This document shows positions 793 through 12,971 of a stretch of DNA of 12,971 nt, one piece after another. The translations under genes were made by a program, and so were the position numbers. Numbering within the stretch: the stretch's first letter is position 1; each line of letters begins with the position of its first letter. Source of the DNA: a virus (taxonomy: Duplodnaviria > Heunggongvirae > Uroviricota > Caudoviricetes); IMG/VR virus record IMGVR_UViG_2718218128_000005; one strand, given 5' to 3'. The notes under the pieces are model-generated. The model made no database searches. It saw nothing but the letters and a program-made list of their open reading frames with translations, and had not been told where the DNA came from.

Positions 793-1067
793 TATGCAAG
801 CCTCACAATATAGTTAAATGCGATGTTTTTGACGGTGTTTTCCGCGTTACCAGCAGCGTTAACGGTGATGGTGTGTCCATGTGACCCTATCGCAACGGAG
901 TGCGTATGAGCACCAATATCCGAATAGAACGATATTGTAAATTCACCTAAATACGAGGCATTGCTGTAGTTGAATTGCAGTACTGTATTAGCCTGACAGT
1001 GACAGAATACGATATTGACTCTGTCACTTGTGAAATGGTCAGAATGGTTAGCAGTTATGGTGATCAG
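792..1067 (-). pseudogene. Side tail fibre (Stf-like) C-terminal remnant, about 91 codons with no start codon
   Basis: My translation of the minus frame 1067..795 is open and ends ...[30 protein letters not shown], which resembles lambdoid side-tail-fibre C-termini. The frame is closed by a stop at 1068-1070 and contains no Met, so the gene is 5'-truncated next to ybcW. Confidence 0.7.
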
Positions 1068-1270
1068 TCAACCAACAGGGAATAATCCTTCGTATTCTTA
1101 TCGTGCTTTACTAACGCGGCCTCAATTGCCCTGAATGCTTCCAGAGATACTTGATGTTCTATACATGCAATTACAACATCAGGGTAACTCATAGAAATGG
1201 TGCTATTAAGCATATTTTTTACACGAATCAGATCCACGGAGGGATCATCAGCAGATTGTTCTTTATTCAT
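1064..1270 (-). CDS. ybcW: Small prophage protein of unknown function, 68 aa (YbcW-like)
   Basis: 68-aa ORF with ATG at 1270-1268. Size, position and divergent orientation relative to ybcV match DLP12 ybcW as I recall it. Confidence 0.6.
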
Positions 1271-1555
1271 TTTGTCGCTCCATGCGCTTGCTCTTCATCT
1301 AGCGGTTAAAATATTACTTCAAATCTTTCTGTATGAAGATTTGAGCACGTTGGCCTTACATACATCTGTCGGTTGTATTTCCCTCCAGAATGCCAGCAGG
1401 ACCGCACTTTGTTACGCAACCAATACTATTAAGTGAAAACATTCCTAATATTTGACATAAATCATCAACAAAACACAAAGAGGTCAGACCAGATTGAAAC
1501 GATAAAAACGATAATGCAAACTACGCGCCCTCGTATCACATGGAAGGTTTTACCA

Positions 1556-1966
1556 ATGGCTCAGGTTGCCATTTTTAAAGAAATATTCGATCAAGTGCGA
1601 AAAGATTTAAACTGTGAATTGTTTTATTCTGAACTAAAACGTCACAACGTCTCACATTATATTTACTATCTAGCCACAGATAATATTCACATCGTGTTAG
1701 AAAACGATAACACTGTGTTAATAAAAGGACTTAAAAAGGTTGTAAATGTTAAATTCTCAAGAAACACGCATCTTATAGAAACGTCCTATGATAGGTTGAA
1801 ATCAAGAGAAATCACATTTCAGCAATACAGGGAAAATCTTGCTAAAGCAGGAGTTTTCCGATGGGTTACAAATATCCATGAACATAAAAGATATTACTAT
1901 ACCTTTGATAATTCATTACTATTTACTGAGAGCATTCAGAACACTACACAAATCTTTCCACGCTAA
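1556..1966 (+). CDS. ybcV: DUF1398-family prophage protein, 136 aa (YbcV/YdfO-like)
   Basis: The track ORF 1433..1966 contains an internal ATG at 1556 preceded by GGAAGG, which gives 136 aa ([13 protein letters not shown]...). Size and position match YbcV. The upstream ATG at 1526 and the track start at 1433 lack a Shine-Dalgarno sequence. Confidence 0.75.
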
Positions 1967-2256
1967 ATCATAACGTCCGGTTTCTTCCGTGTCAGCACCG
2001 GGGCGTTGGCATAATGCAATACGTGTACGCGCTAAACCCTGTGTGCATCGTTTTTAATTATTCCCGGACACTCCCGCAGAGAAGTTCCCCGTCAGGGCTG
2101 TGGACATAGTTAATCCGGGAATACAATGACGATTCATCGCACCTGACATACATTAATAAATATTAACAATATGAAATTTCAACTCATTGTTTAGGGTTTG
2201 TTTAATTTTCTACACATACGATTCTGCGAACTTCAAAAAGCATCGGGAATAACACC

Positions 2257-2550
2257 ATGAAAAAAATGCTACTCGCTACTGCGCTGGCCCTGCTTATTAC
2301 AGGATGTGCTCAACAGACGTTTACTGTTCAAAACAAACCGGCAGCAGTAGCACCAAAGGAAACCATCACTCATCATTTCTTCGTTTCTGGAATTGGGCAG
2401 AAGAAAACTGTCGATGCAGCCAAAATTTGTGGCGGCGCAGAAAATGTTGTTAAAACAGAAACCCAGCAAACATTCGTAAATGGATTGCTCGGTTTTATTA
2501 CTTTAGGCATTTATACTCCGCTGGAAGCGCGTGTGTATTGCTCACAATAA
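2257..2550 (+). CDS. borD: Bor outer-membrane lipoprotein (serum-resistance moron), 97 aa
   Basis: The translation matches lambda Bor as I remember it, with a lipoprotein signal peptide and lipobox LITGC. It sits opposite and convergent to Rz, as in lambda. Confidence 0.95.
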   Translation: MKKMLLATALALLITGCAQQTFTVQNKPAAVAPKETITHHFFVSGIGQKKTVDAAKICGGAENVVKTETQQTFVNGLLGFITLGIYTPLEARVYCSQ

Positions 2551-2556
2551 TTGCAT

Positions 2557-2582
2557 GAGTTGCCCATCGATATGGGCAACTC
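2557..2582. terminator. Palindromic hairpin between convergent bor and Rz
   Basis: GAGTTGCCCAT-CGAT-ATGGGCAACTC: 11-bp perfect stem with a 4-nt loop, overlapping the Rz stop codon. There is no strong U-tract on either strand, so terminator function is uncertain. Confidence 0.3.
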
Positions 2583-3043
2583 TATCTGCACTGCTCATTA
2601 ATATACTTCTGGGTTCCTTCCAGTTGTTTTTGCATAGTGATCAGCCTCTCTCTGAGGGTGAAATAATCCCGTTCAGCGGTGTCTGCCAGTCGGGGGGAGG
2701 CTGCATTATCCACGCCGGAGGCGGTGGTGGCTTCACGCACTGACTGACAGACTGCTTTGATGTGCAACCGACGACGACCAGCGGCAACATCATCACGCAG
2801 AGCATCATTTTCAGCTTTCGCATCAGCTAACTCCTTCGTGTATTTTGCATCGAGCGCAGCAACATCACGCTGACGCATCTGCATGTCAGTAATTGCCGCG
2901 TTCGCCAGCTTCAGTTCTCTGGCATTTTTGTCGCGCTGGGCTTTGTAGGTAATGGCGTTATCACGGTAATGATTAACAGCCCATGACAGGCCGACGATGA
3001 TGCAGATAACCAGAGCGGAGATAATCGCGGTTACTCTGTTCAT
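2582..3043 (-). CDS. rzpD: Rz i-spanin (inner-membrane spanin subunit), 153 aa
   Basis: The translation matches lambda Rz as I remember it. The true ATG is at 3043-3041, overlapping the R stop (ATGA); the track ORF begins 4 codons earlier at a GTG. Confidence 0.93.
2641..2823 (-). CDS. rzoD: Rz1 o-spanin lipoprotein, 60 aa, embedded in the +1 frame of Rz
   Basis: [24 protein letters not shown]... has lipobox VVGC and a proline-rich segment; it matches lambda Rz1 as I remember it. It lies entirely inside Rz. Confidence 0.9.
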
Positions 3044-3537
3044 TGCTGACCCCACAAACAGATTTCACGCTCAATCTCACGACGAGTCATGAGACCTTTC
3101 CATTGCTTACCGCCAGCATATGTCCAGCGACGTAGCTGATCACATGCGCCTTTGATATCGCCCTGGTTTATTTTGCGAAGAAGCGTCGATGTTCTGAAAT
3201 TGCCAGCACCCACGTTGTAAACGAATGAGTAAAGAGCGCCGCGCGTTGTTTCCGGTATATCGACTTTGATGTACGGGTTAATTTGTCTGGCGACAGTGGC
3301 AAGGTCTTTATTCAAGAGTGCTTTGCATTCTGCTTTGGTATACGTTTTACCGAGCATGATGTCTTTTCCTGTATGCCCGTGACATACAGTCCATACACCA
3401 ACAATATCTTTATATGGTATGTAGCTGACACCTTCCAGACCATCGTCACCACTCGGACCAGTGATGAGCACAGACGCTATGGCAACAGCCCCACCACCAA
3501 TAGCAGCTGCTACAGCCTTGCGTAATGATGGCGACAT
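3040..3537 (-). CDS. rrrD: Phage-21-type endolysin with N-terminal SAR domain (T4-lysozyme-like, GH24), 165 aa
   Basis: Gly/Ala-rich weakly hydrophobic N-terminus ([20 protein letters not shown]) followed by an E...D...T catalytic arrangement ([18 protein letters not shown]). Its ATG overlaps the S stop (TAATG). Confidence 0.93.
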
Positions 3538-3752
3538 TATTCACCTCTCGCAGCCTTACGCTTATCTTCTTTAATCTTGAAATAAAGGTTTGTCAGGTAC
3601 GTCAGCAGGCCAAATACCAGGCTACCCAGCACTCCAATTGCCGCCCACTGTGAGGGCGTGACTTTATCTAGCAGCTGTAAAAACCAGTACCCGGCACTAC
3701 CTGCTGAGGTGCCATAGGCGACACCCGTTGTTAACTTATCCATGGATTTCAT
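3537..3752 (-). CDS. essD: Pinholin S21-type holin with dual-start motif (MKSM), 71 aa
   Basis: 71 aa with two predicted transmembrane segments and Met1-Lys2-Ser3-Met4, the classic antiholin/holin dual start of phage 21 S. GAGGTGG Shine-Dalgarno sequence upstream. Confidence 0.93.
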
Positions 3753-3861
3753 AACCCCACCTCGCAGACAAAGCGGGTGTAAATTGAGGGAATACTACGA
3801 AACGTAACAGACTCGGAGTCAGTGAATAACTCAGGTATTGGGTTATCAGCTAATATCGAGA

Positions 3862-3897
3862 CTCAAAAAATGGAAAAACCCGCTCGACGGCGGGTTT
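3862..3897 (-). terminator. Intrinsic terminator on the minus strand about 110 nt upstream of S; candidate late-operon tR'-like terminator
   Basis: Stem AAACCCGC(3876-3883)/GCGGGTTT(3890-3897) with a 6-nt loop. On the minus strand it is followed directly by TTTTTCCATTTTTTG. Confidence 0.5.
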
Positions 3898-4325
3898 AAG
3901 CTGTGTGACGAAGTAACCACTCTTAACAGCATAACCAATTTTTTACGTACGTAAACCACTAAATGATATTTGCGAGAATGCTACCGAGTATTGAAAACAC
4001 CACTACAAATACATAAGCAAATCTCAACAAATAACCAACAAATAATTTCCAGTGTTATTTTTAGCCGATTTAAATTGAACCTTCAAATTATAGAGCACTT
4101 ATAAATAACAGCCGTTAATATAAATTGGCTAATAGATTTATTTTTATTCAGCCAAGAGCTATAAATAGGATTCGATAGAAAAAAGTTCAGATAAAAATAG
4201 AGATCTACTTCACAAATCAAACGAGAAACCAAAACTTACATCTTGAAATAATCACATTGATTAGATGAATATTTATCGCGCAGTGACATCATTTTTTAAT
4301 AATAGTTCAAAAAAAAGGGCTCACG

Positions 4326-5423
4326 ATGAAAAAATTAACAGTGGCAATTTCTGCTGTAGCTGCATCAGTACTGATGGCGATGTCTGCTCAGGCAGCTGAA
4401 ATTTATAATAAAGACAGTAACAAGCTGGATCTGTACGGGAAAGTTAATGCCAAGCACTACTTCTCCTCTAATGATGCAGATGATGGTGATACTACTTATG
4501 CCCGTCTTGGCTTCAAAGGTGAAACCCAAATCAACGATCAACTGACTGGTTTCGGTCAGTGGGAATATGAATTCAAAGGCAACCGCGCTGAATCTCAAGG
4601 TTCCTCCAAAGACAAAACCCGTCTTGCATTTGCAGGCCTGAAATTCGGTGACTACGGCTCAATCGATTACGGCCGTAACTACGGTGTAGCATACGACATC
4701 GGTGCGTGGACTGACGTTCTGCCAGAATTCGGTGGCGATACCTGGACCCAAACAGATGTGTTCATGACTGGTCGCACCACTGGTGTTGCAACCTATCGTA
4801 ACAACGACTTCTTTGGTCTGGTTGATGGTCTGAACTTTGCTGCTCAGTACCAAGGCAAAAACGATCGTAGCGATTTCGATAACTACACTGAAGGTAACGG
4901 TGATGGCTTCGGTTTCTCTGCTACCTATGAATACGAAGGATTCGGTATCGGTGCAACTTATGCGAAATCTGATCGTACCGACACTCAAGTTAATGCAGGG
5001 AAAGTTCTTCCTGAAGTATTTGCTTCCGGTAAAAATGCAGAAGTTTGGGCCGCAGGTCTGAAATATGACGCTAACAACATTTACCTGGCCACTACCTATT
5101 CTGAAACCCAGAATATGACTGTATTTGCTGATCACTTCGTTGCTAATAAAGCCCAAAACTTCGAAGCTGTTGCACAATATCAGTTCGATTTCGGTCTGCG
5201 TCCGTCCGTTGCTTACCTGCAATCTAAAGGTAAAGATCTTGGAGTATGGGGCGATCAGGACTTAGTCAAATATGTTGATGTAGGTGCAACCTATTACTTC
5301 AACAAAAATATGTCTACTTTCGTTGATTACAAAATCAACCTGCTTGACAAAAATGACTTCACTAAAGCACTCGGTGTAAGCACTGATGACATCGTTGCTG
5401 TAGGTCTGGTTTACCAGTTCTAA
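4326..5423 (+). CDS. nmpC: Outer-membrane general porin, NmpC/Lc (OmpC/OmpF family), apparently intact, 365 aa
   Basis: Signal peptide ending [10 protein letters not shown], general-porin-like sequence and the terminal ...VGLVYQF. It lies between Q and the lysis genes on the opposite strand, as nmpC does in DLP12. Confidence 0.93.
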
Positions 5424-5596
5424 TCTGATTACGAAAAAGATATGTTGCGGGAGGCGTTGCCTCCCCAACATATAAGTGGCTCCCTCAAGCCACTTCCTTT
5501 AGAAGCACAACCTTGCTTCTAACTATATAAACCTTCTGTTATATATTACCCTTTATTTTTGGGGGCGTCTCAACGCCCCATTTTTAATAATTTTTA
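5424..5596 (+). ncRNA. ipeX: Candidate IpeX-like small RNA / structured 3' region downstream of the porin gene
   Basis: Three successive hairpins (5449-5465 GGGAGGC/GCCTCCC; about 5471-5492 AAGTGGCT/AGCCACTT; about 5500-5517 GAAGCA/TGCTTC) plus the terminator at 5562-5596. I recall a porin-inhibitory sRNA (IpeX) mapped just 3' of nmpC in DLP12; the boundaries here are guesses. Confidence 0.25.
5562..5596 (+). terminator. Intrinsic terminator on the plus strand (porin / 3' RNA terminator)
   Basis: Stem GGGGCGT(5562-5568)/ACGCCCC(5573-5579) with a 4-nt loop, followed by ATTTTTAATAATTTTT. It would also shield Q from antisense read-through. Confidence 0.5.
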
Positions 5597-5612
5597 GTAA
5601 ACAATTGGCATA

Positions 5613-5996
5613 TTAATTAGAGTTATTAACAACGATATCCATCTCTAACCGGATATCTAATGCCATTAACATCCCTTCAATTATGCCCTCAGCCTTCTGT
5701 AACCTTTTCCCGATATAACCATCAGAGCAGCAATGCTTACCTGCCAGTGACATGAATGTCATACCGACTACATAATAATCTACTAATAAATCGTGCAAAT
5801 CGCTGTTGTTCTTTTTCAGACGGGCCATGCACCCGCAAATAATCATCGCGTCATCGTCACAACATTGCGGGCGAGATTTTACTTTTGAAGTAATTAATCC
5901 CTTAAAACCGGCGGCAATGGACGACCAGGTCACATCTTCATGATTATTAGCCGCCCACGCTCCCCAACGCTCAAGAACCATCTGAATATCACGCAT
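5613..5996 (-). CDS. quuD: Late-gene antiterminator Q, 127 aa
   Basis: ATG at 5996-5994 with GGAG upstream gives 127 aa ([18 protein letters not shown]...), the size of DLP12 QuuD. The track ORF starts 5 codons earlier at TTG. Confidence 0.9.
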
Positions 5997-6081
5997 CAAC
6001 TTACTCCACAAAAATCAGACCAGAACGCCAATTACAAGCAAAAATCAACAAAACAGTATTAGTTGATTGTTATCTCTGACT

Positions 6082-6219
6082 TCATACTCCTGCTCCTGTC
6101 AGGGTTTTGGCGTAATTCTTCAGTATTCGGTAATCGGTCAAAACAGAACCGGGGAAACGATATAAGCGCAGATGCCCCCAGCGGTGGCGAAGAAGTTCTG
6201 CCATATAAAACTCAAACAT
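6082..6219 (-). CDS. ylcG: Small nin-region ORF, 45 aa (YlcG-like)
   Basis: My translation from ATG 6219-6217 to stop 6084-6082 is [45 protein letters not shown]. Its start overlaps the rusA stop (TGATG), and its position between rusA and Q matches ylcG. Confidence 0.45.
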   Translation of the reverse strand: MFEFYMAELLRHRWGHLRLYRFPGSVLTDYRILKNYAKTLTGAGV

Positions 6220-6581
6220 CATTCATTCCCCATTTCGGTGATGGTCAGTTCCAGCCTCCCACCTTTGGTAACAGGCATCTTCACAACGCGGTAATCAACG
6301 ACCTGAGCATCATCCAGCCAGAAACCTGCTTTGGTGAGTGCGTCAAAAGCGGCTTTTTGCAGATTATCCAGGTCACGGCGACGGCGATCCGGCATGTGGC
6401 ACTCAATACGGATTTTCACTGGCATAGCCAGGCCGATATCCAGCATTGCGTTTTTAATGATTCGGGTGACGTTATCGCGGTATGCCTGCCCTTCTGCGCT
6501 GATGTGCGTGCGCCCGCGATTATGGCGGTAATAGCGATTATTGCTCGGAGGCCAGGGTAATGTGATGCTGTAGGTATTCAC
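6219..6581 (-). CDS. rusA: RusA Holliday-junction resolvase, 120 aa
   Basis: [18 protein letters not shown]... matches RusA as I remember it. GTG start at 6581-6579 overlaps the ybcO stop. Confidence 0.93.
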
Positions 6582-6868
6582 GCCTTAATAACCCCCTCTT
6601 TCAGCCAGATAACCTGTGTTCTCGCCATACCTTCCAGCGCGCATTCTTTTGCATATGCAGCATCGACAAAATGTGTGCGGCGGTCGATTTCGTCGTGGCA
6701 GGCAGAACATGCAATGGTGGCAATCAGGTCTGGCGGTTTGATACCGGTACCGCACAATCCAGCCAGCCGGATATGTGCCAGTACAGACGTTTCAGAATTG
6801 CCATTACATACGCCAGGGATTCTTACCTGGCATTCCCGACCACGCGCTGCTTTTCTCAAATCAGCCAT
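6578..6868 (-). CDS. ybcO: YbcO-like nin-region protein (DUF1364, putative nuclease), 96 aa
   Basis: ATG at 6868-6866 preceded by AGGAGG gives 96 aa ([23 protein letters not shown]...). The track ORF starts 13 codons upstream. Confidence 0.85.
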
Positions 6869-7031
6869 GATTCCTCCTTGCTGCCAGTCGCAACCATTTT
6901 TTATCAACCAGGCTAGCGGTATATCCGAGCAGTGTTGGTATTTCGGATGGCTTCGGCTCAGGCTTACGCTTACGACGATTTGATACTCTGTAGATGTGTC
7001 CGTTCATGACACGAATAAGCGGTGTAGCCAT
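6861..7031 (-). CDS. ninE: NinE, 56 aa
   Basis: My translation (ATG 7031-7029 to stop 6863-6861) is [56 protein letters not shown]. It is below the track's size cut-off; its start overlaps the ybcN stop (TAATG) and its end overlaps the ybcO start. Confidence 0.8.
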   Translation of the reverse strand: MATPLIRVMNGHIYRVSNRRKRKPEPKPSEIPTLLGYTASLVDKKWLRLAARRNHG

Positions 7032-7486
7032 TACGCCTCCTGCTTGTCACGGAGCAGCTGGAACTCGCAGCTCTGCGGAATAGTCAGGTGGCAGCCAATA
7101 TTCACCGCCCAGGCTTCAACCTTACACAGGAAGACATACATCTCTCCGGTATCAAGATCGGAGGTATGGCGTAACGACTGGATAGTGGTGATATCACCGG
7201 TTACGACATCAACCAGGTCTTTGGTTTCATAACCGAGATATGTGTGTTTGAGAGCATCTTTTACCCAAGCTGGAGTGGCGAACGTTTTACCCCTGTTGAT
7301 GAGGTATTCACTGATTTCGCTGTACCACATGTGGCTGAGTGCATTCTGGGAAAGACTGCGTTTCTCACGCCACGGTTTAAGCACCATGCGAAAGCATTTG
7401 CCCTCCTCCAGATAAGGCTGGATCTGCCGACCGATAGCGGTGAAGTTACCGCGATGTAATTTGATGCCATCTTGTGGGAGATTCAC
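7031..7486 (-). CDS. ybcN: YbcN-like nin-region protein, 151 aa
   Basis: 151 aa with a GTG start at 7486-7484 preceded by GGAGGTG. Size and position match DLP12 ybcN. Confidence 0.85.
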
Positions 7487-7682
7487 GCTTCACCTCCGCA
7501 GAGGTCAAACGCTGGATGCAAAAAATCGCAGGTGCATCTCTGCATCTGTGAAGGGAGAAGAGAGTTTGGATTGTATGTGCGCATAAACGTCCCCGTTTAG
7601 CGCAGAAGTCACCGGAGTTGTTCAGGCTCCGATGACATGATTATGGCAAAATGATTATGTAAAATCAAAAGCCAAAAAACAA

Positions 7683-8612
7683 TTATGGTTTATTTTCTAG
7701 CTCTGATTTTTTGAAAGCTTCTATCAGACGATTAGCATCTTCTGTACCACCAGGAAGCACGTTTGATTTTTTAAGAATATACGGTGGGAACTTTGTGGTT
7801 AAATATTCATGCTTAAACCATCTACGAAACTCTGACAATGCAGAATCAGGATAGGCATTAATGATCTGAGGATTGGAACTTGCCTGAAGAAAATCTTCAG
7901 GGTAATAATGCTCACAGTCTACTCTTTCTCCAAATTCTGTTGCTAACCCCTTTGCTTTCCAGTGACGCGCCCAGCAAGAACCAACACTGCCATCAGGTAC
8001 GGTATGCTGATTAATCGCTAATCCAGCATTGATGAGATCTACCATCATACCTGCAATTTCATTAAATATAATGAAATACCCATCAGGTATGGTTCCCTTA
8101 TCTTTTAATAAAGATACTCTGTCATGGTAATGCCTCCACGGGTCCTCCGGTTGATATTTTAGCGCCTCGTATATAAATGTCTTGAGGCCTTTTTTAGCAA
8201 GCTCTCTGTAAGATCTAATTGCAGTCTCACTTTCTGCTTGTTTTGCTTCAAAGGCATAGTATTCAAGTATAGCCATGCATACAACATCTGGATAAGCATG
8301 GTACTCAACACCATTTCGAATTATTGGTATATAAAGTTTTTCATCTGTAAAACCTTCATTAAGAAGATATGTACCAATAAAAGTCATTCTTCCTTTTTTG
8401 AAAATACCGTTCTCAACGGATTGAGCCCACTCATCGGTAATTTCCTTGATTCGCAAACGCTGAACACCACAAACATTTGCCAACCCATTCTGAGTAAGGT
8501 ACGGAATTCCGTTATCGAGTACCCCCATTTCTATACCGTTAATGACAGCCTCTTGCTTAACATCTAAGTCTAAAGGTATGGATCTGAGGGAGGTAGTTCT
8601 CTGTTGTGCCAT
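7683..8612 (-). CDS. AT-rich cargo gene of unknown function, 309 aa; candidate anti-phage/abortive-infection protein with a possible KilA-N/APSES-like N-terminal domain (BstA-like architecture is a hypothesis)
   Basis: Long ORF with ATG at 8612-8610 preceded by AGGA at 6-nt spacing (the track ORF starts 5 codons earlier at TTG). The N-terminal stretch VINGIEMGVLDNGIPYLTQNGLANVCGV resembles the DG-x-x-W-V-N-A-T-x-I-L-K-A-A-G core of KilA-N/APSES domains. The gene looks markedly more AT-rich than the flanking phage genes. The confidence given is for a real CDS, not for the functional call. Confidence 0.7.
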   Translation of the reverse strand: MAQQRTTSLRSIPLDLDVKQEAVINGIEMGVLDNGIPYLTQNGLANVCGVQRLRIKEITDEWAQSVENGIFKKGRMTFIGTYLLNEGFTDEKLYIPIIRNGVEYHAYPDVVCMAILEYYAFEAKQAESETAIRSYRELAKKGLKTFIYEALKYQPEDPWRHYHDRVSLLKDKGTIPDGYFIIFNEIAGMMVDLINAGLAINQHTVPDGSVGSCWARHWKAKGLATEFGERVDCEHYYPEDFLQASSNPQIINAYPDSALSEFRRWFKHEYLTTKFPPYILKKSNVLPGGTEDANRLIEAFKKSELENKP

Positions 8613-8718
8613 TTTTGATCCTATCAATTTGAATTCATTGAAAAAATTAGGTGTTCCCTATGCATTAGAACACTCATCATAGTAACCCCACTCGTTTGTG
8701 AAAAAAACTAATTTCACA

Positions 8719-8744
8719 ATCAGTTAACTCTCAAAATAACTGAT
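8719..8744. promoter_or_regulatory. Perfect 8-bp inverted repeat with a 10-bp spacer in the AT-rich leader of the 309-aa gene; candidate operator
   Basis: ATCAGTTA(8719-8726)-N10-TAACTGAT(8737-8744), about 110 bp upstream of the start codon. Confidence 0.3.
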
Positions 8745-8816
8745 ATTCATACTCTCGCTATCCCATATATAGACATCCTTGTTTTAATACAACACTCATG
8801 GCTGGCGGCTATACTC

Positions 8817-9134
8817 CTAACAGATTTGACGCAAATACGGCAATACTCGACTCCACTTATCATCCTGCCACGGCTGAAGTTTTACATGTGCCGTTTCTCG
8901 GACGAGGATTGCTCGCGCTCTGTTGAGTATCTGGGGATATTCTTGCTCGATGGAAGTGAAGTGACCAGCTTCACCATGCTCCGCATCCTGAAGAAGATGA
9001 GTAACGTTCTGGTAGGCAATTAACATCACATTCCCTGCTCGCCATAACCAGGCGAGTGTGCAAAGTTCGTTATCAGTGAATTGTTTTGTGATTGGGGATT
9101 GTTGAACTGCTAGAACGAGAACGCCAGCATCCAT
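8817..9134 (-). CDS. Hypothetical protein, 105 aa, upstream of the 309-aa cargo gene
   Basis: ORF bounded by a stop 3 codons upstream of its ATG, with a weak AGGGA Shine-Dalgarno sequence. No family recognised. It looks more GC-rich than its AT-rich flanks, so it could be a remnant or a real small gene. Confidence 0.4.
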   Translation of the reverse strand: MDAGVLVLAVQQSPITKQFTDNELCTLAWLWRAGNVMLIAYQNVTHLLQDAEHGEAGHFTSIEQEYPQILNRARAILVRETAHVKLQPWQDDKWSRVLPYLRQIC

Positions 9135-9245
9135 TGGCAGTCCCTATAGTAAAACCATAGCTCAGGACGCTTCGTTCAGGATAGATAATTTTATTGTACT
9201 TACCTAACTTTCTTACTATAGCACGGTTGAAAAAGTGATTATTAC

Positions 9246-10772
9246 TCAAAAATAAACCTCACCATCAACCATATATTTGAGAGTACTTATCGCCTGCTGG
9301 GCGGATATTGTTTTCATTAAAGGATAGTGTTTAAAAACAATGCCATTCATAAAATAGATATCACAGGTTTTATTATCTGTATTGATTATGATTTTTTCGA
9401 ATGTTTTATAGGCAAGTGTACGACATAGCTCTCGCCCATTTTTACTGGTTAAGTCAATAGCATGAAAATCACCAAGTGAGCTCACCGCTTTACTCTTCAA
9501 AGTTTTTAATGATACAGAAGCCCTTCGTAATTCCTTATCTAATACTCTGATTTTTTCTGCTATAGCGGTAACTTCAGGCGCAACAGATAATGCAGCAATT
9601 AAATTATTAATTTTCATCTGGAGCTCAATAATTTTCAACTCTAAAGTTTCATTAGCATCTTTCTTGTTTTCAACTGGTTGGATTTTACTACAATTAAAAA
9701 GCAACTCATTAATGATATTATAATCAACCAAATCTCTCTTTATTGATGGCCTGTCACATCGATGCAGTCTTCTCATCGGACAAACATAATAGCCATGCAA
9801 ACTTCCAGATACCGCATGAACAATCATGGTATTACCACAAGCCTCGCACTTCATAACTGTTCGAAGTAGATTTATCAACATAGGGTTTTTGCTACTATTG
9901 CTAATACCAAAAGGTGCCAACCGAATTTCCTGCACAGCGTAAAACAAATCATCTGATATGACTCTGGGATAATAGCCAGCGATTTCACTTATTCCTTTAC
10001 CTCTTGCACGATATGAAGGTACGCATATACCTATCAGAGCTTTATTCGCTAATAATTTTTCAATTACAGAAGGTCCCCATGCACTTTCTTTTCCTGAGAA
10101 ATTCTTTACAGCATGATCATTTAAATACTTGGCTATTGCATTCAATGAGCGCCTTTCCATCCTGAGTTTAAAAATTAGCTCAATAGTTTTCACCCTGTCG
10201 GGGTCTGGAACAAAAGCCGTTCTTTTGTCATCTAAGGAGAGCCATCTCGGACAAGACGCCGTCATAATCGTGCCTGACTCCAGTGCATCCTGCCGTTTTT
10301 TCTTCCATGATAATTTAACCCGACTTGACTTTATCTCGCTTTCTTCATTTGCCCTTTGTGCTATAAGTATGGCTTTTATTAATGAATATGGATCATTCAA
10401 AGAGTCAATATTATAGACTGTATTATCGCAAAGAGTTATAACATCAATACCGTGATTCAAAATCAATTTCAGACGCTCAATCGCTTCACCGACTTTTTCT
10501 CTTGAAAGTCTGTCCAGACTTTCAACTAACAATGTAGTTCCTGGCAATATATAACCATGCTCTATAGCATCTAAAAATTCCGAAAAAGCTCCTGATTGTG
10601 CATGCTTTCCTTTGAATGCACTTAATCCTAAATCTTCATATGTTATGGTATCAAGATAATAATCACTATTTACCTTTAACCATTCAGCAATAAGTCTTCT
10701 CTGTCGGTTTAATGAGTCGCCAGACATCTGACCTGGTGATGAAAATCGCATATATGCTATGGCTTTTTTCAT
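9246..10772 (-). CDS. ybcK: Large serine recombinase (resolvase/invertase N-terminal catalytic domain plus recombinase and zinc-ribbon regions), 508 aa (YbcK-like)
   Basis: N-terminus AIAYMRFSSPGQ... carries the serine-recombinase catalytic Ser motif, and there is a Cys cluster (CEACGN...YYVCP...HRC). AGGTG Shine-Dalgarno sequence; 508 aa equals the DLP12 YbcK length. Confidence 0.9.
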   Translation of the reverse strand: MKKAIAYMRFSSPGQMSGDSLNRQRRLIAEWLKVNSDYYLDTITYEDLGLSAFKGKHAQSGAFSEFLDAIEHGYILPGTTLLVESLDRLSREKVGEAIERLKLILNHGIDVITLCDNTVYNIDSLNDPYSLIKAILIAQRANEESEIKSSRVKLSWKKKRQDALESGTIMTASCPRWLSLDDKRTAFVPDPDRVKTIELIFKLRMERRSLNAIAKYLNDHAVKNFSGKESAWGPSVIEKLLANKALIGICVPSYRARGKGISEIAGYYPRVISDDLFYAVQEIRLAPFGISNSSKNPMLINLLRTVMKCEACGNTMIVHAVSGSLHGYYVCPMRRLHRCDRPSIKRDLVDYNIINELLFNCSKIQPVENKKDANETLELKIIELQMKINNLIAALSVAPEVTAIAEKIRVLDKELRRASVSLKTLKSKAVSSLGDFHAIDLTSKNGRELCRTLAYKTFEKIIINTDNKTCDIYFMNGIVFKHYPLMKTISAQQAISTLKYMVDGEVYF

Positions 10773-10954
10773 GGTGACACCTGCTAACGTATGCTTCTAT
10801 AAACCTTAGTGGTGAGATATAATTTTTGTTTAATTTTTATTTAAAAAGACAATTAAGGTCACATTATCTTGAATATACAACAATAATCGTATTGCAATTT
10901 TCTTACGCCATAATCTTGAAAGCACAAAAGAATACATAAAAAAATAAAGACATT

Positions 10955-10997
10955 AACAAAAAGCATAAAACGAGGCTCATATAAATATAAGAGCCTC
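10955..10997 (-). terminator. Intrinsic terminator downstream of emrE (minus strand)
   Basis: Stem GAGGCTC(10972-10978)/GAGCCTC(10991-10997) with a 12-nt AT loop. On the minus strand it is followed by GTTTTATGCTTTTTG. Confidence 0.4.
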
Positions 10998-11028
10998 CAT
11001 ATTTTAGTCGTTTAGAAACAAATTATTT

Positions 11029-11361
11029 TTAATGTGGTGTGCTTCGTGACAATAAATTAATAACCAACACACCGGCACAAATCAACATCATGCCTATAAT
11101 GGCTGGCAGGTCCAGCCGTTGGCCGAAAAATCCCCATGACAGTAAGCTAATCAGGACAATACCGACTCCTGACCAGATAGCATAAGCAATCCCTGTAGGA
11201 ATATAAGCCAGCGTCTGAGCTAATAACCAGAATGATGCACAATAACAAATAATTGTACCAACAGATGGCCATAACCGTGTAAAACCTTCTGAAAACTTCA
11301 TTAAGGTTGTACCAATGACCTCTGCAAGTATTGCACCACCAAGATAAATATAAGGGTTCAT
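11029..11361 (-). CDS. emrE: EmrE small multidrug resistance (SMR) efflux transporter, 110 aa
   Basis: From ATG 11361-11359 the translation MNPYIYLGGAILAEVIGTTLMKFSEGF...LLSRSTPH matches EmrE as I remember it, with four transmembrane segments. The track ORF starts 18 codons upstream. Confidence 0.95.
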   Translation of the reverse strand: MNPYIYLGGAILAEVIGTTLMKFSEGFTRLWPSVGTIICYCASFWLLAQTLAYIPTGIAYAIWSGVGIVLISLLSWGFFGQRLDLPAIIGMMLICAGVLVINLLSRSTPH

Positions 11362-11428
11362 AGCATATTCTTTCCTGTTCAAACTGGAGAGAATTGTACT
11401 ACAGTTTGAAATCAACTCACCTGTTTCA

Positions 11429-11731
11429 TCATTGTGTACCCATTGATGTTCTTTTATATACCCTCAATACGCGTTTCATCGCGGCACTCTGGCGACACTC
11501 CTTAAAAATCAGATTCGTGCTCACCTTTCCTTCCCGTTCTTCTCTGGTAGCGAACCGGTAATACACCGTTCGCCAGACCTTACCATCAACGACCAGGATT
11601 CCTGCCCGCGCCATTTTAGCCGCAGCCTGATTTATGCTGGTTACGGTTGCGCCTGTTACCGCGGCAACGTCCTGTGCACAGAAGCTCTTATGCGTCCCCA
11701 GGTAATGAATAATTGCCTCTTTGCCCGTCAT
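11429..11731 (-). CDS. ren: Ren (lambda Ren-like), 100 aa
   Basis: MTGKEAIIHYLGTH...KVWRTVYYRFATREEREGK... is near-identical to lambda Ren as I remember it. Its ATG overlaps the P stop (ATGA). Confidence 0.9.
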   Translation of the reverse strand: MTGKEAIIHYLGTHKSFCAQDVAAVTGATVTSINQAAAKMARAGILVVDGKVWRTVYYRFATREEREGKVSTNLIFKECRQSAAMKRVLRVYKRTSMGTQ

Positions 11732-12339
11732 ACACTTGCTCCTTTCAGTCCGAACTTAGCTTTAATTTCTGCGATCTTCGCCAGAGCCTGTGCACGATTT
11801 AGAGGTCTACCGCCCATAACAGGAAGTTGTTTTACTGGTTCAGGGATCGCCTCACCACGGTTAATTCTCGCAGTCATATGGACAAGCTCATCTGCGGCCT
11901 TACGGCGTAATTCCGCATCAGTAAGCGCATTGGCCCGCATGTTCTGATACAGGTTGGTAACCAGCCAGTAGTGCGCGTTTGATTTCCACGGATAAGACTC
12001 CGCATCCGGATACAGGCCTCGCTTCCGGCAATACTCGTAAACCATATCAACCAGCTCGCTGACGTTTGGCAGTCCGGCGATAACGGATGCTTCTTCCCGG
12101 CACCATGCAACAAACTGCCCGGGTGATGGCAGAAATGGTCGATTCTGCCGACGGGCTACGCGCATTCCAGCGTTAACCTGTTCCATTGTGGTGATCCCGT
12201 TTTCCCGGAAAGCCAGAACCCACTGGCGGCGGATTTCGTTCAGTTCATTCTGGTCACGGTTAGCCAGGCTCGCCGGGAAAGTTGCCAGTAACTGGCTGAA
12301 CACACCATTGATGATCTGCGCTACCTGCTGTACCAGCGG
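11728..12339 (-). pseudogene. P: Replication protein P (lambda P, DnaB helicase loader), N-terminally truncated
   Basis: The track protein ...FSQLLATFPASLANRDQNE...KAKFGLKGASV matches the C-terminal roughly 190 aa of lambda P as I remember it. The frame stays open upstream only to a stop at 12340-12342 and has no in-frame ATG; the track start at 12303 is a GTG encoding an internal Val. The first ~45 residues of P, and the gene O upstream, are absent. Confidence 0.85.
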
Positions 12340-12971
12340 TCAGAAACAAGCGAGTCAGATGGCTGGAAAAGGAGGAAGCAAAACGCCTTATTGATGAGTG
12401 CCCCGAACCACTGAAATCTGTCGTCAAGTTTGCGCTGGCAACTGGTCTGAGAAAGTCGAACATCATAAATCTGGAATGGCAACAAATCGACATGCAGCGA
12501 CGAGTTGCCTGGGTGAATCCAGAAGAGAGCAAATCAAACCGCGCCATTGGTGTGGCGCTAAACGATACCGCCTGTAAAGTGTTGCGTGATCAAATAGGCA
12601 AGCATCACAAATGGGTGTTTGTACATACCAAGGCGGCTAAGCGAGCAGATGGAACATCAACGCCTGCGGTCAGGAAGATGCGCATCGACAGCAAGACATC
12701 ATGGCTATCAGCTTGTCGTCGTGCAGGAATTGAAGATTTCCGTTTCCATGACCTCAGACACACCTGGGCAAGCTGGCTGATTCAGTCAGGCGTCCCATTA
12801 TCAGTGCTTCAGGAAATGGGCGGATGGGAGTCCATAGAAATGGTTCGTAGGTATGCTCACCTTGCGCCTAATCATTTGACAGAGCATGCGAGGAAAATAG
12901 ACGACATTTTTGGTGATAATGTCCCAAATATGTCCCACTCTGGAATTATGGAGGATATAAAGAAGGCGTAA
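12340..12971 (+). pseudogene. int: Tyrosine recombinase (phage integrase) C-terminal catalytic domain, truncated N-terminally at the junction with P'
   Basis: The frame is open from 12315. It carries ATGLR (catalytic Arg), HDLRHTWAS (H-x-x-R) and MVRRYAHL (catalytic Tyr). Only about 210 codons are present, so the arm-binding and core-binding N-terminal domains are missing. The stop falls at 12969-12971, the window edge. Confidence 0.8.

Follow-up and report, generated by a model that had tools for sequence, protein, structure and literature searches.

Recent truncation of a DLP12-family prophage probably accounts for its intact lysis cassette

A lysis cassette with all reading frames open, located in a prophage that has lost its virion genes, raises the question of why it is still intact: is it kept by the host, or is the copy too young to have decayed? 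The stretch of DNA analysed here (12,971 nt, denoted below as the window) holds such an element, a ~13-kb remnant of a DLP12-family prophage. The original prediction read the pattern as selection to keep controlled lysis. In our assessment, with a probability of roughly 0.7, the cassette is the standard late lysis module of a lambdoid phage of the DLP12 family, in a copy that was cut to ~13 kb by two recent deletions, and it is intact for want of time to decay.

The cassette is complete and lies on the minus strand, where a reading-frame check finds S, R, Rz, and the embedded Rz1 all open (Table 1), as anticipated in the original prediction. The overlapping junctions it described are read directly from the sequence. 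The S stop codon (TAA, 3539-3537) overlaps the R start codon (ATG, 3537-3535) in TAATG, and the Rz start codon (ATG, 3043-3041) overlaps the R stop codon (TGA, 3042-3040) in ATGA. The gene identities given in the original prediction stand; their Pfam matches are far beyond chance.

S encodes a protein of 71 aa, of which residues 5-67 align with positions 1-63 of the 64 in the PF04971 profile. The protein begins with MKSMDK and hence displays the expected MKSM dual start: M1 would yield a 71-aa antiholin and M4 a 68-aa holin, and within M1-K2-S3-M4 the positively charged residue is present in the longer (antiholin) form only. In phage 434B, whose S protein is identical, S71 and S68 are each annotated with a ribosome-binding site of their own. 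According to Kyte-Doolittle averages, applied here in place of a dedicated topology predictor, the second hydrophobic segment (~33-60) alone exceeds a mean of 1.0; the first one (~8-27) is Gly/Ala/Ser-rich and weakly hydrophobic. This would fit a pinholin layout in which the first segment can leave the membrane and the second is strongly hydrophobic. The protein belongs to the Pfam family built on S of phage 21 (S21) and resembles it in the dual start and probably in the two-segment layout, and the two presumably differ at roughly ten residues.

The endolysin R (165 aa) aligns over residues 1-165 with RrrD (PDB 4ZPU; E = 5e-110, 368 bits) and, likewise end to end, with the lysozyme of phage 21 (R21, PDB 3HDE; E = 2e-109, 366 bits). 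The catalytic Glu-Asp-Thr triad is in place (E35, D44, and T50). Its N-terminus carries a Gly/Ala-rich hydrophobic stretch (~4-31; hydrophobic windows begin at residues 4-17), which fits an uncleaved signal-anchor-release (SAR) segment with predicted release from the membrane. Triad and SAR segment are alike in R21.

The spanin subunits are of the lambda type. Rz comprises 153 aa from its ATG (the ORF listing carries the frame on to an upstream GTG at 3055) and shows an N-terminal hydrophobic segment (windows begin at residues 1-13) as well as Cys14, Cys99, and Cys152. Rz1 (60 aa) is wholly contained in Rz in another frame, with both frames open, and harbors a lipobox (LVVVGC) with Cys20, in addition to Cys29 and 11 prolines. 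This embedded architecture is that of phage lambda, from whose proteins Rz differs at 2 residues and Rz1 at 1. At the DNA level, 97.7% identity to lambda over 2127 nt sets in precisely at the start codon of Rz and extends from there through bor and the homologues of ybcV and ybcW (window 919-3043). Homology stops exactly at the R/Rz boundary; S and R of lambda, a class I holin and a transglycosylase, are unrelated to those of the window. The label "phage-21-type", originally given to the whole cassette, is appropriate for S and R but not for Rz/Rz1, and Q is related to Q21 only distantly (PDB 6JNX/6P18; E = 7.6e-7 over 80 residues).

Q (127 aa) is intact, as had been claimed, with 0 amino acid differences from QuuD of K-12. 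An NmpC-type porin gene stands between Q and S; it is whole in the window, whereas the K-12 copy is broken by IS5, and the order Q-porin-S is also found in phage PhiR30_1. A consensus scan together with reading of the sequence yielded a hairpin with a T-run upstream of S, which may act as a late terminator subject to read-through by Q-modified polymerase.

If the characterised proteins of phage 21 and lambda are taken as a guide to the lysis mechanism, Q would carry RNA polymerase past the terminator that precedes S, and S would be produced both as an antiholin of 71 aa and as a pinholin of 68 aa. R would be exported in an inactive state, tethered to the inner membrane by its N-terminal SAR segment. 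Triggering of the pinholin would create small holes and collapse the membrane potential; R would then be freed and cut the cell wall, and the Rz/Rz1 spanin pair would subsequently disrupt the outer membrane.

Table 1. Features of the truncated DLP12-family prophage in window coordinates.
Feature	Coordinates	Strand	Evidence
Tail-fibre assembly gene (tfa), intact, 194 aa	208..792	-	PF02413, E = 1.6e-44
Tail-fibre C-terminal stub, ~42 codons	793..923	-	Translation; matches partial tail protein of WL164
Left deletion junction, just past ybcW	917..923		Sequence-comparison (BLAST) boundaries
Rz, inner-membrane spanin subunit, lambda type	2582..3043	-	PF03245, E = 2.6e-54
Rz1, outer-membrane lipoprotein spanin subunit	2641..2823	-	PF06085, E = 2.9e-20
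R, SAR endolysin, GH24 lysozyme, RrrD/R21 type	3040..3537	-	PF00959, E = 1.3e-45
S, class II pinholin/antiholin with dual start	3537..3752	-	PF04971 (P21 holin), E = 2e-35
Terminator-like hairpin and T-run, ~124 nt upstream of S (candidate late terminator)	3876..3897	-	Consensus scan and sequence reading
Mosaic crossover interval	4310..4450		PhiR30_1/A12-like to the left, A16-like to the right
NmpC-type porin gene, intact, between Q and S	4326..5423	+	PF00267, E = 1e-156
Q, late antiterminator, QuuD type	5613..5996	-	PF06530, E = 4e-53
P, replication gene without its first ~32 codons	11728..12332	-	PF06992, E = 1.2e-60; compared with intact P of A16
Right deletion junction, P (from nt 98) / int (from nt ~523)	12331..12334		4-nt overlap GGTA
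intD integrase, 3' 641 nt of 1164 only	12331..12971	+	100% identity to the last 641 nt of A12 intD

The prophage is defective, in line with the original prediction: it lacks cos, terminase, the repressor region, and O along with every head and tail gene, and P is without its start and int without its first 523 nt. At the left junction, homology to A12, A16, and K-12 sets in at 917-919 and that to the WL164 tail fibre breaks off at 923. Lost in this deletion are ylcI, cos, terminase, and all the structural (head and tail) genes up to the last ~42 tail-fibre codons, i.e. the stub to which the structural region had been said to be reduced. In the sequence collection, 5934 blocks are indexed with the exact tail-fibre assembly protein; among the eight contexts listed, its gene follows a run of tail genes in six, and most structural genes are absent in the other two. 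A second deletion, which the original prediction did not contain, removed the early region from P codon ~33 to int nt 523, and the PF00589 match on the remaining intD covers the C-terminal part of the profile only. Neither the left junction (917-923) nor the right one (12331-12334) was found in 5,426 complete E. coli genomes and the GTDB species representatives; both deletion alleles are rare.

A look-up of the shortened P product revealed further truncated relatives and a hot spot within the gene: six different deletions end at one identical point in P.

The genes spared by the two deletions are in the same condition as the cassette. Among the uncut genes, bor, ybcV, ybcW, tfa, ren, ninE, ybcO, rusA, ylcG, ybcN, Q, and nmpC are all intact, and the sole small lesion is a frameshift in ylcJ, which is common to the window and A16. 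We know of no host role for tfa, ren, and ninE.

In E. coli K-12, DLP12 (qsr') carries essD-rrrD-rzpD/rzoD and quuD at the same site beside intD and shares with the window the order emrE-ybcK-...-Q-porin-S-R-Rz/Rz1-bor-ybcV-ybcW. The site is assigned by the 3' 641 nt of intD, in which the window ends, and by the fitting gene order; argU itself lies outside the window. The S and Q proteins are identical in both elements, R differs at 5 residues, and the cassette DNA is 95.7% identical. In contrast, the deletion endpoints differ on both sides, the porin gene of the window is free of IS5 and its ren free of IS3, bstA and a P22_AR_C gene occupy the place of ybcL/ybcM, nohD and ylcI are gone, int is truncated, and tfa is intact. 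The deletion junctions and IS insertions of K-12 were not found in the window, which is an independently truncated DLP12 relative and not part of the K-12 defective lineage. Work on qsr' is reportedly the source of the long-standing knowledge that the DLP12 lysis module is intact and functional.

Much closer relatives are prophages and a phage with far more of their genes. The cassette is identical at 1171/1171 positions to that of the strain A12 prophage, a near-complete element at the argU site (int through J, with one pseudogene, the tape measure), and a homopolymer indel is its only difference from phage PhiR30_1 (PV340558). No publication on PhiR30_1 was found, and its plaque formation rests on the GenBank record (host E. 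coli C), in which a 1-nt deletion breaks the Rz and Rz1 frames. Over the block 917-4450, which includes the whole cassette, the window shows 0 substitutions and a 1-nt indel in a G6 run relative to PhiR30_1, and 1 substitution relative to the A12 prophage. The likeness covers the late block ybcW-ybcV-bor-Rz-R-S and the intergenic region upstream of it. Both relatives have their own full early region, terminase, and head genes, A12 also the tail genes to J, and at 61/1874 positions of the nin region and Q-proximal genes they depart from the window. There, the window follows the A16 prophage, from which it differs at ~2 positions across 4310-12334 and whose early region is complete and head genes are present as far as its sequence was retrieved. 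The crossover between the two kinds of sequence was placed by the positions of the differences and a per-gene difference table.

Members of the phage family continue to circulate. Index hits to the exact protein number 42,121 blocks for Q and 24,286 for EmrE, and most of the contexts listed for them contain complete early regions and terminase genes.

The sharp mosaic edge at 4310-4450 is also what would be expected if the remnant had already been defective when the block from ybcW to S (917-4450) was replaced from an infecting or co-resident active phage, an event that would reset decay. In the laboratory, lambdoid phages often recombine with DLP12 in this way, and lambda recombinants with R and Rz from DLP12 are active (PMC3945230). 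Modules are swapped among the relatives as well, e.g. in locus L015, where lambda-type S and R are combined with the same Rz. However, the mosaic could predate the deletions in a full-length ancestor, as a single sequence gives no order of events, and the PhiR30_1-like block reaches the left junction at 917, so that a later exchange needs a crossover within the ~150 nt of homology beyond ybcW. Replacement after truncation is considered unlikely.

The reading preferred here, that of a recently cut copy, follows from the distances themselves. Because the cassette is nucleotide-identical to copies in full-length relatives, too little time has passed for decay, and its intactness is for this reason silent on selection for lysis in this host. 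From 0 substitutions in 3534 nt, a 95% upper bound of ~0.5 mutations would result for the 1171-nt cassette on the window lineage, with a disruptive share of < 0.1, so that under neutral evolution the cassette is expected to be intact with a probability > 0.9. Recency would account for the pattern without need of selection. The step from an intact cassette next to a deleted structural region to selection for lysis is not supported, given that the cassette is identical to the A12 copy and the other uncut genes are equally intact. Intactness beyond the neutral decay time, by which domestication would be recognised, is not observed, with 0 substitutions over 3.5 kb and uncut neighbours intact except ylcJ.

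Domestication would mean that the host keeps S-R-Rz/Rz1 by purifying selection, that low expression aids wall turnover, biofilm formation, or vesicle control, and that deletions spare the cassette. That the DLP12 cassette of K-12 is retained and functional and has host phenotypes has been published before. Biofilm, peptidoglycan-release, and vesicle phenotypes of K-12 cassette mutants and regulation by Q, RpoE, and Hha are described and domestication is argued, which bears out the envelope and biofilm link mentioned in the original prediction; in Shigella, by contrast, the locus has reportedly been lost (PMC7918800). The K-12 cassette is intact and functional despite IS5, IS3, and other deletions, and this counts against recency as an explanation; its nearest non-truncated relative is 15 nt away (14 synonymous differences and 1 non-synonymous, in a small sample). 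The S-R-Rz segment of phage 434B is identical to that of K-12 DLP12.

Truncation of such prophages is recurrent, as seen from differing deletion endpoints, and at least 8 independently truncated relatives retain the cassette. It is kept in the window, WL164, K-12/L025, L028, L032, L037, L038, and EC06 and lost only in L020, where a deletion begins 31 nt into S; this loss argues against host need, and the ~10 truncated relatives were ascertained via Q, EmrE, or P, neighbours of the cassette, which biases the sample toward retention. In 4/5 independent truncated copies, the S+R segment is 0-1 nt from a non-truncated copy (sample n = 16). Across 23 copies, the S protein does not vary (12 segregating nucleotide sites, 12/12 synonymous). 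Against other alleles, pN/pS is 0 for S and 0.06-0.08 for R, values that mix phage and host history. Such constraint is equally expected from selection during phage life, as the same alleles occur in full-length prophages and phages. Moreover, the window copy has no substitutions since its ancestor common with such copies, and genes without a known host role are just as intact. Domestication of the cassette is considered distinctly unlikely for the window.

Two measures were dropped as arguments for host selection: low pN/pS, given that the alleles compared also live in full-length phages, and cassette retention in most truncated relatives as a decisive point, given ~10 loci found via neighbour genes.

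Open frames could, finally, belong to an inert relic, silenced by a missense change or by lost regulatory input. Loss of the early region took away N, the early promoters, and the repressor region and left Q without its normal source of transcription, and a consensus scan for a late promoter between Q and S gave no convincing sigma-70 site on the minus strand; sites picked visually were set aside as unreliable. In the K-12 DLP12 literature, the mapped start lies several hundred nt upstream of S, and the reporter fragment spans -121 to +650 (PMC7918800). Against an inert cassette, its coding sequence agrees base for base with that of a near-complete prophage and is one indel apart from that of a deposited phage, the upstream intergenic region is identical to PhiR30_1, and the equivalent operon of K-12 is reported as transcribed (PMC7918800). 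A crippled cassette is thus highly improbable.

As a discovery, the case is ordinary and small, since an intact and functional DLP12 lysis module with its literature on biofilm, peptidoglycan release, and vesicles was already known. It carries a caution: an open frame within a defective prophage speaks for selection only where the copy has existed long enough to decay, and by comparison with full-length relatives the window copy has not. Clades defined by shared deletion junctions may offer a cleaner test of domestication. For the family as a whole, we tentatively propose, at somewhat short of even odds, that "DLP12" is not one ancient domesticated relic but a group of copies, recent and each truncated independently, of a phage family still circulating at the argU site; their cassettes would be intact through youth and exchange with active phages and not through host need. 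If this is true, the published reading of cassette retention as domestication would be weaker.

The window, 12,971 nt long, is a remnant of a lambdoid prophage of the family of DLP12, the classical qsr' prophage, and lies in reversed orientation relative to the copy in E. coli K-12. Two large deletions have removed most of its former content. On the left, homology to full-length relatives ends at 917-923 and resumes in the 3' end of the tail-fibre gene; ylcI and the genes from cos through the tail are therefore all gone, which bears out the view that this prophage is unable to make virions. On the right, the segment from about codon 33 of P to nucleotide 523 of int was removed (junction 12331-12334). 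The losses here include O and the beginning of int, together with the immunity region and recombination genes.

Gene order and coordinates of the prophage remnant, from left to right
Feature	Position	Strand	Remarks
Methyltransferase gene	leftmost in window		end only
Tail-fibre assembly gene	208-792	minus	intact
Tail-fibre gene	793-923		last ~42 codons
ybcW, ybcV, bor	between tail-fibre stub and lysis cassette		
Lysis cassette Rz/Rz1, R, S	2582-3752	minus	Rz 2582-3043; Rz1 2641-2823; R 3040-3537; S 3537-3752
Spacer, S to porin gene	3753-4325		573 nt; terminator-like hairpin 3876-3897
NmpC-type porin gene	4326-5423	plus	intact, 365 aa
Q	5613-5996		
ylcG, rusA, ybcO, ninE, ybcN	right of Q		in left-to-right order
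bstA and P22_AR_C gene	7683-8627 and 8817-9134 (pair), right of ybcN	minus	bstA a defence gene
ybcK, emrE, then ren	right of bstA/P22_AR_C genes		
P	right of ren		without first ~32 codons
intD	right end of window		last 641 nt

The frame of ybcV (1433-1966, plus strand) can be read from a GTG at 1433, which gives 177 aa, as annotated in the deposited Escherichia phage genome PhiR30_1 (PV340558); RefSeq gives 136 aa from an ATG at 1556. The frame of ylcJ (10830-10980, minus strand) is broken by one extra nucleotide in a T-run (T7 vs. T6 in K-12), a defect also annotated in the prophage of strain A16 and in the WL164 prophage and therefore older than the truncation. The gene for the abortive-infection defence protein BstA is intact (PADLOC E = 3.8e-121) and located behind the P22_AR_C-domain ORF, at the ybcL/ybcM position of K-12 DLP12. 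Since relatives harbor various other genes there, e.g. for an esterase or a NACHT protein, the stretch from ybcK to ybcN is a variable cargo position.

The frames of S, R, Rz, and Rz1 are all open without disruption, the overlapping junctions TAATG and ATGA are both seen in the sequence, and Pfam E-values for the cassette genes and Q range from 3e-20 to 3e-54. S encodes 71 aa with the N-terminus MKSMDK, R 165 aa, Rz 153 aa if the ATG at 3043 is taken as its start (the ORF listing extends to a GTG at 3055), and Rz1, located inside Rz in another frame, 60 aa. Over its full length, R aligns with the lysozymes of known structure from K-12 (RrrD) and phage 21, and it retains E35/D44/T50 and a Gly/Ala-rich N-terminal segment. 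Cysteines are present at positions 20 (in the lipobox) and 29 of Rz1 and at positions 99 and 152 of Rz. Q is likewise intact, with 0 amino-acid differences from K-12 QuuD. The designation of this region as phage-21-type applies to S and R, but not to Rz/Rz1, which are of lambda type, nor to Q, a distant relative of Q21 within the same Pfam family. DNA homology to lambda starts exactly at the Rz start codon and extends, with 97.7% identity, across bor and the homologues of ybcV and ybcW, with two residues differing in Rz and one in Rz1. The cassette is a mosaic in its own right. A related locus (L015) shows lambda-type S and R before the same Rz as the window; S-R and Rz/Rz1 are therefore pairs that can be exchanged as units. 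In PhiR30_1, at the equivalent of window 2691-2697, one G is missing from the G6 run where Rz and Rz1 overlap. Both spanin frames are thereby disrupted; the deposited sequence is in error here, or else the phage grows without spanins.

Everything described in the original prediction is present in the window at the coordinates given, and its gene identities and the defective state stand. Its further step, from an intact cassette beside a deleted structural region to selection for controlled lysis, does not, since the cassette is identical to that of a full-length prophage: it matches the copy in E. coli A12 at 1171 of 1171 positions, and the A12 prophage, at the argU site, extends from int to J with a single pseudogene. 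Window 917-4450 shows 0 substitutions relative to PhiR30_1, apart from the one-base difference in the G6 run, and 4310-12334 shows about two differences from the A16 prophage. The latter shares the emrE-ybcK-bstA cargo with the window and has its early region complete, with terminase and head genes in the portion examined. A sharp mosaic boundary is located at 4310-4450 (the 5' end of the porin gene, with the crossover in its first 125 nt), left of which the window corresponds to PhiR30_1/A12 and right of which to A16. These block-wise matches identify the window as a recombinant of two phage backgrounds, each block being, at the level of sequence, essentially identical to a full-length phage. 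Given 0 substitutions in 3.5 kb, fewer than 0.1 disruptive mutations would be expected in the 1.17-kb cassette under neutrality, so that an intact cassette is the neutral prediction. The contrast originally drawn is one between genes lost to two large deletions and genes still untouched, not one of decay against protection. The remaining genes uncut by the deletions, including tfa, ren, and ninE, are also intact, and the sole small lesion, the ylcJ frameshift, is shared by A16. Both junctions are absent from the 5,426 complete E. coli genomes and the GTDB representatives searched, which fits a young, rare deletion allele.

The DLP12 phage family is circulating. In a public collection, the exact Q protein is indexed in 42,121 blocks and the exact EmrE in 24,286, and most of the contexts listed contain complete early regions and terminase genes. 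Truncation is recurrent, with differing endpoints (the window, K-12, WL164, L028, L032, L037, L038, and EC06), and most truncated copies retain the cassette. Of five independent truncated copies, four have an S+R segment that lies 0-1 nt from a non-truncated one (sample size only 16); the exception, K-12, is 15 nt from the nearest non-truncated copy, with 14 of the changes synonymous. S-R-Rz is retained both in E. coli EC06, a truncated relative in which IS2 separates emrE from ybcK and a deletion reaches from a terminase-small fragment into envY, and in L037, a truncated relative with a PAAR/Rhs-type gene directly after bor. The lysis cassette can be lost in nature, as follows from L020 (CP098183.1, GCA_023657935.1): S is reduced to its first 31 nt (17886-17916), beyond which a deletion extends to a Macro-domain gene and a gene for tail-fibre assembly. 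The early region of this relative is complete, and the emrE-ybcK-ybcL-ybcM-Q-porin genes are present. In 23 copies the S protein shows no variation, and pN/pS of R is 0.06-0.08, which amounts to strong purifying selection; because the same S and R alleles live in phages, this selection cannot be credited to the host.

The right deletion shares its endpoint with other loci. P is retained from one exact nucleotide, (GG)|TACAGCAGG (P nt 98), in six different deletion junctions (the window, EC06, L032, L037, L038, and L039), in a comparison that took in these loci plus L036 and L040 and in which the ascertainment of some loci limits endpoints to ~60 nt, not to one base. The kept end, (GG)|TACAGCAGGTAGCG, is joined to six differing partners: int (twice), bet (twice), the O/ori iterons, and a DUF1317 gene. 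All six crossovers lie at TA, and the partner sequence is TACCCG in three and TAACCG in a fourth. A nonsense mutation and a 1-nt deletion are located ≤8 nt from the site in two otherwise full-length phages. The P site resembles a hot spot at which deletions are site-specific or driven by structure; one hypothetical idea is that a site-specific enzyme, e.g. the nearby serine recombinase YbcK, acts on secondary sites.

Judged from characterised homologues, lysis would begin with Q-modified polymerase passing through the hairpin upstream of S. S68 would then build up, restrained by S71, while R is held inactive, tethered in the inner membrane; triggering of the pinholin would depolarise the membrane and release R, and the spanins would complete lysis at the outer membrane. 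A consensus scan between Q and S placed no late promoter. The K-12 reporter spans -121 to +650 around the mapped start (PMC7918800), and the start is therefore located several hundred nt upstream of S. The S-porin spacer should contain late regulatory signals. It occurs in two forms with ~55-65 differing positions, including a 14-17-nt indel at 3796-3799, one in the window, K-12, A12, and PhiR30_1, the other in A16 and WL164. The porin gene lies antisense between Q and S, as in PhiR30_1, and is intact, whereas the K-12 copy is interrupted by IS5. If the late promoter is located beside Q, late transcription would meet the porin gene head-on. As the early promoters and N are missing, read-through or minor promoters would be the sole sources of Q expression.

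The S-R-Rz segment of phage 434B is identical to the K-12 copy. Lambda recombinants with DLP12 R and Rz in place of their own were active (PMC3945230). The DLP12 lysis module, termed 'integrally conserved', is reported to be transcribed and controlled by Q, RpoE, and Hha; it has been linked to biofilm, peptidoglycan release, and vesicle production, domestication has been proposed, and Shigella is said to have lost the locus (PMC7918800). The present case repeats what is published on DLP12, with another allele and in a copy whose truncation was independent. Host-level selection on DLP12 cassettes in general is compatible with the data; the window itself gives no evidence for it. BstA, if a working defence gene, could alone favor retention of the remnant.
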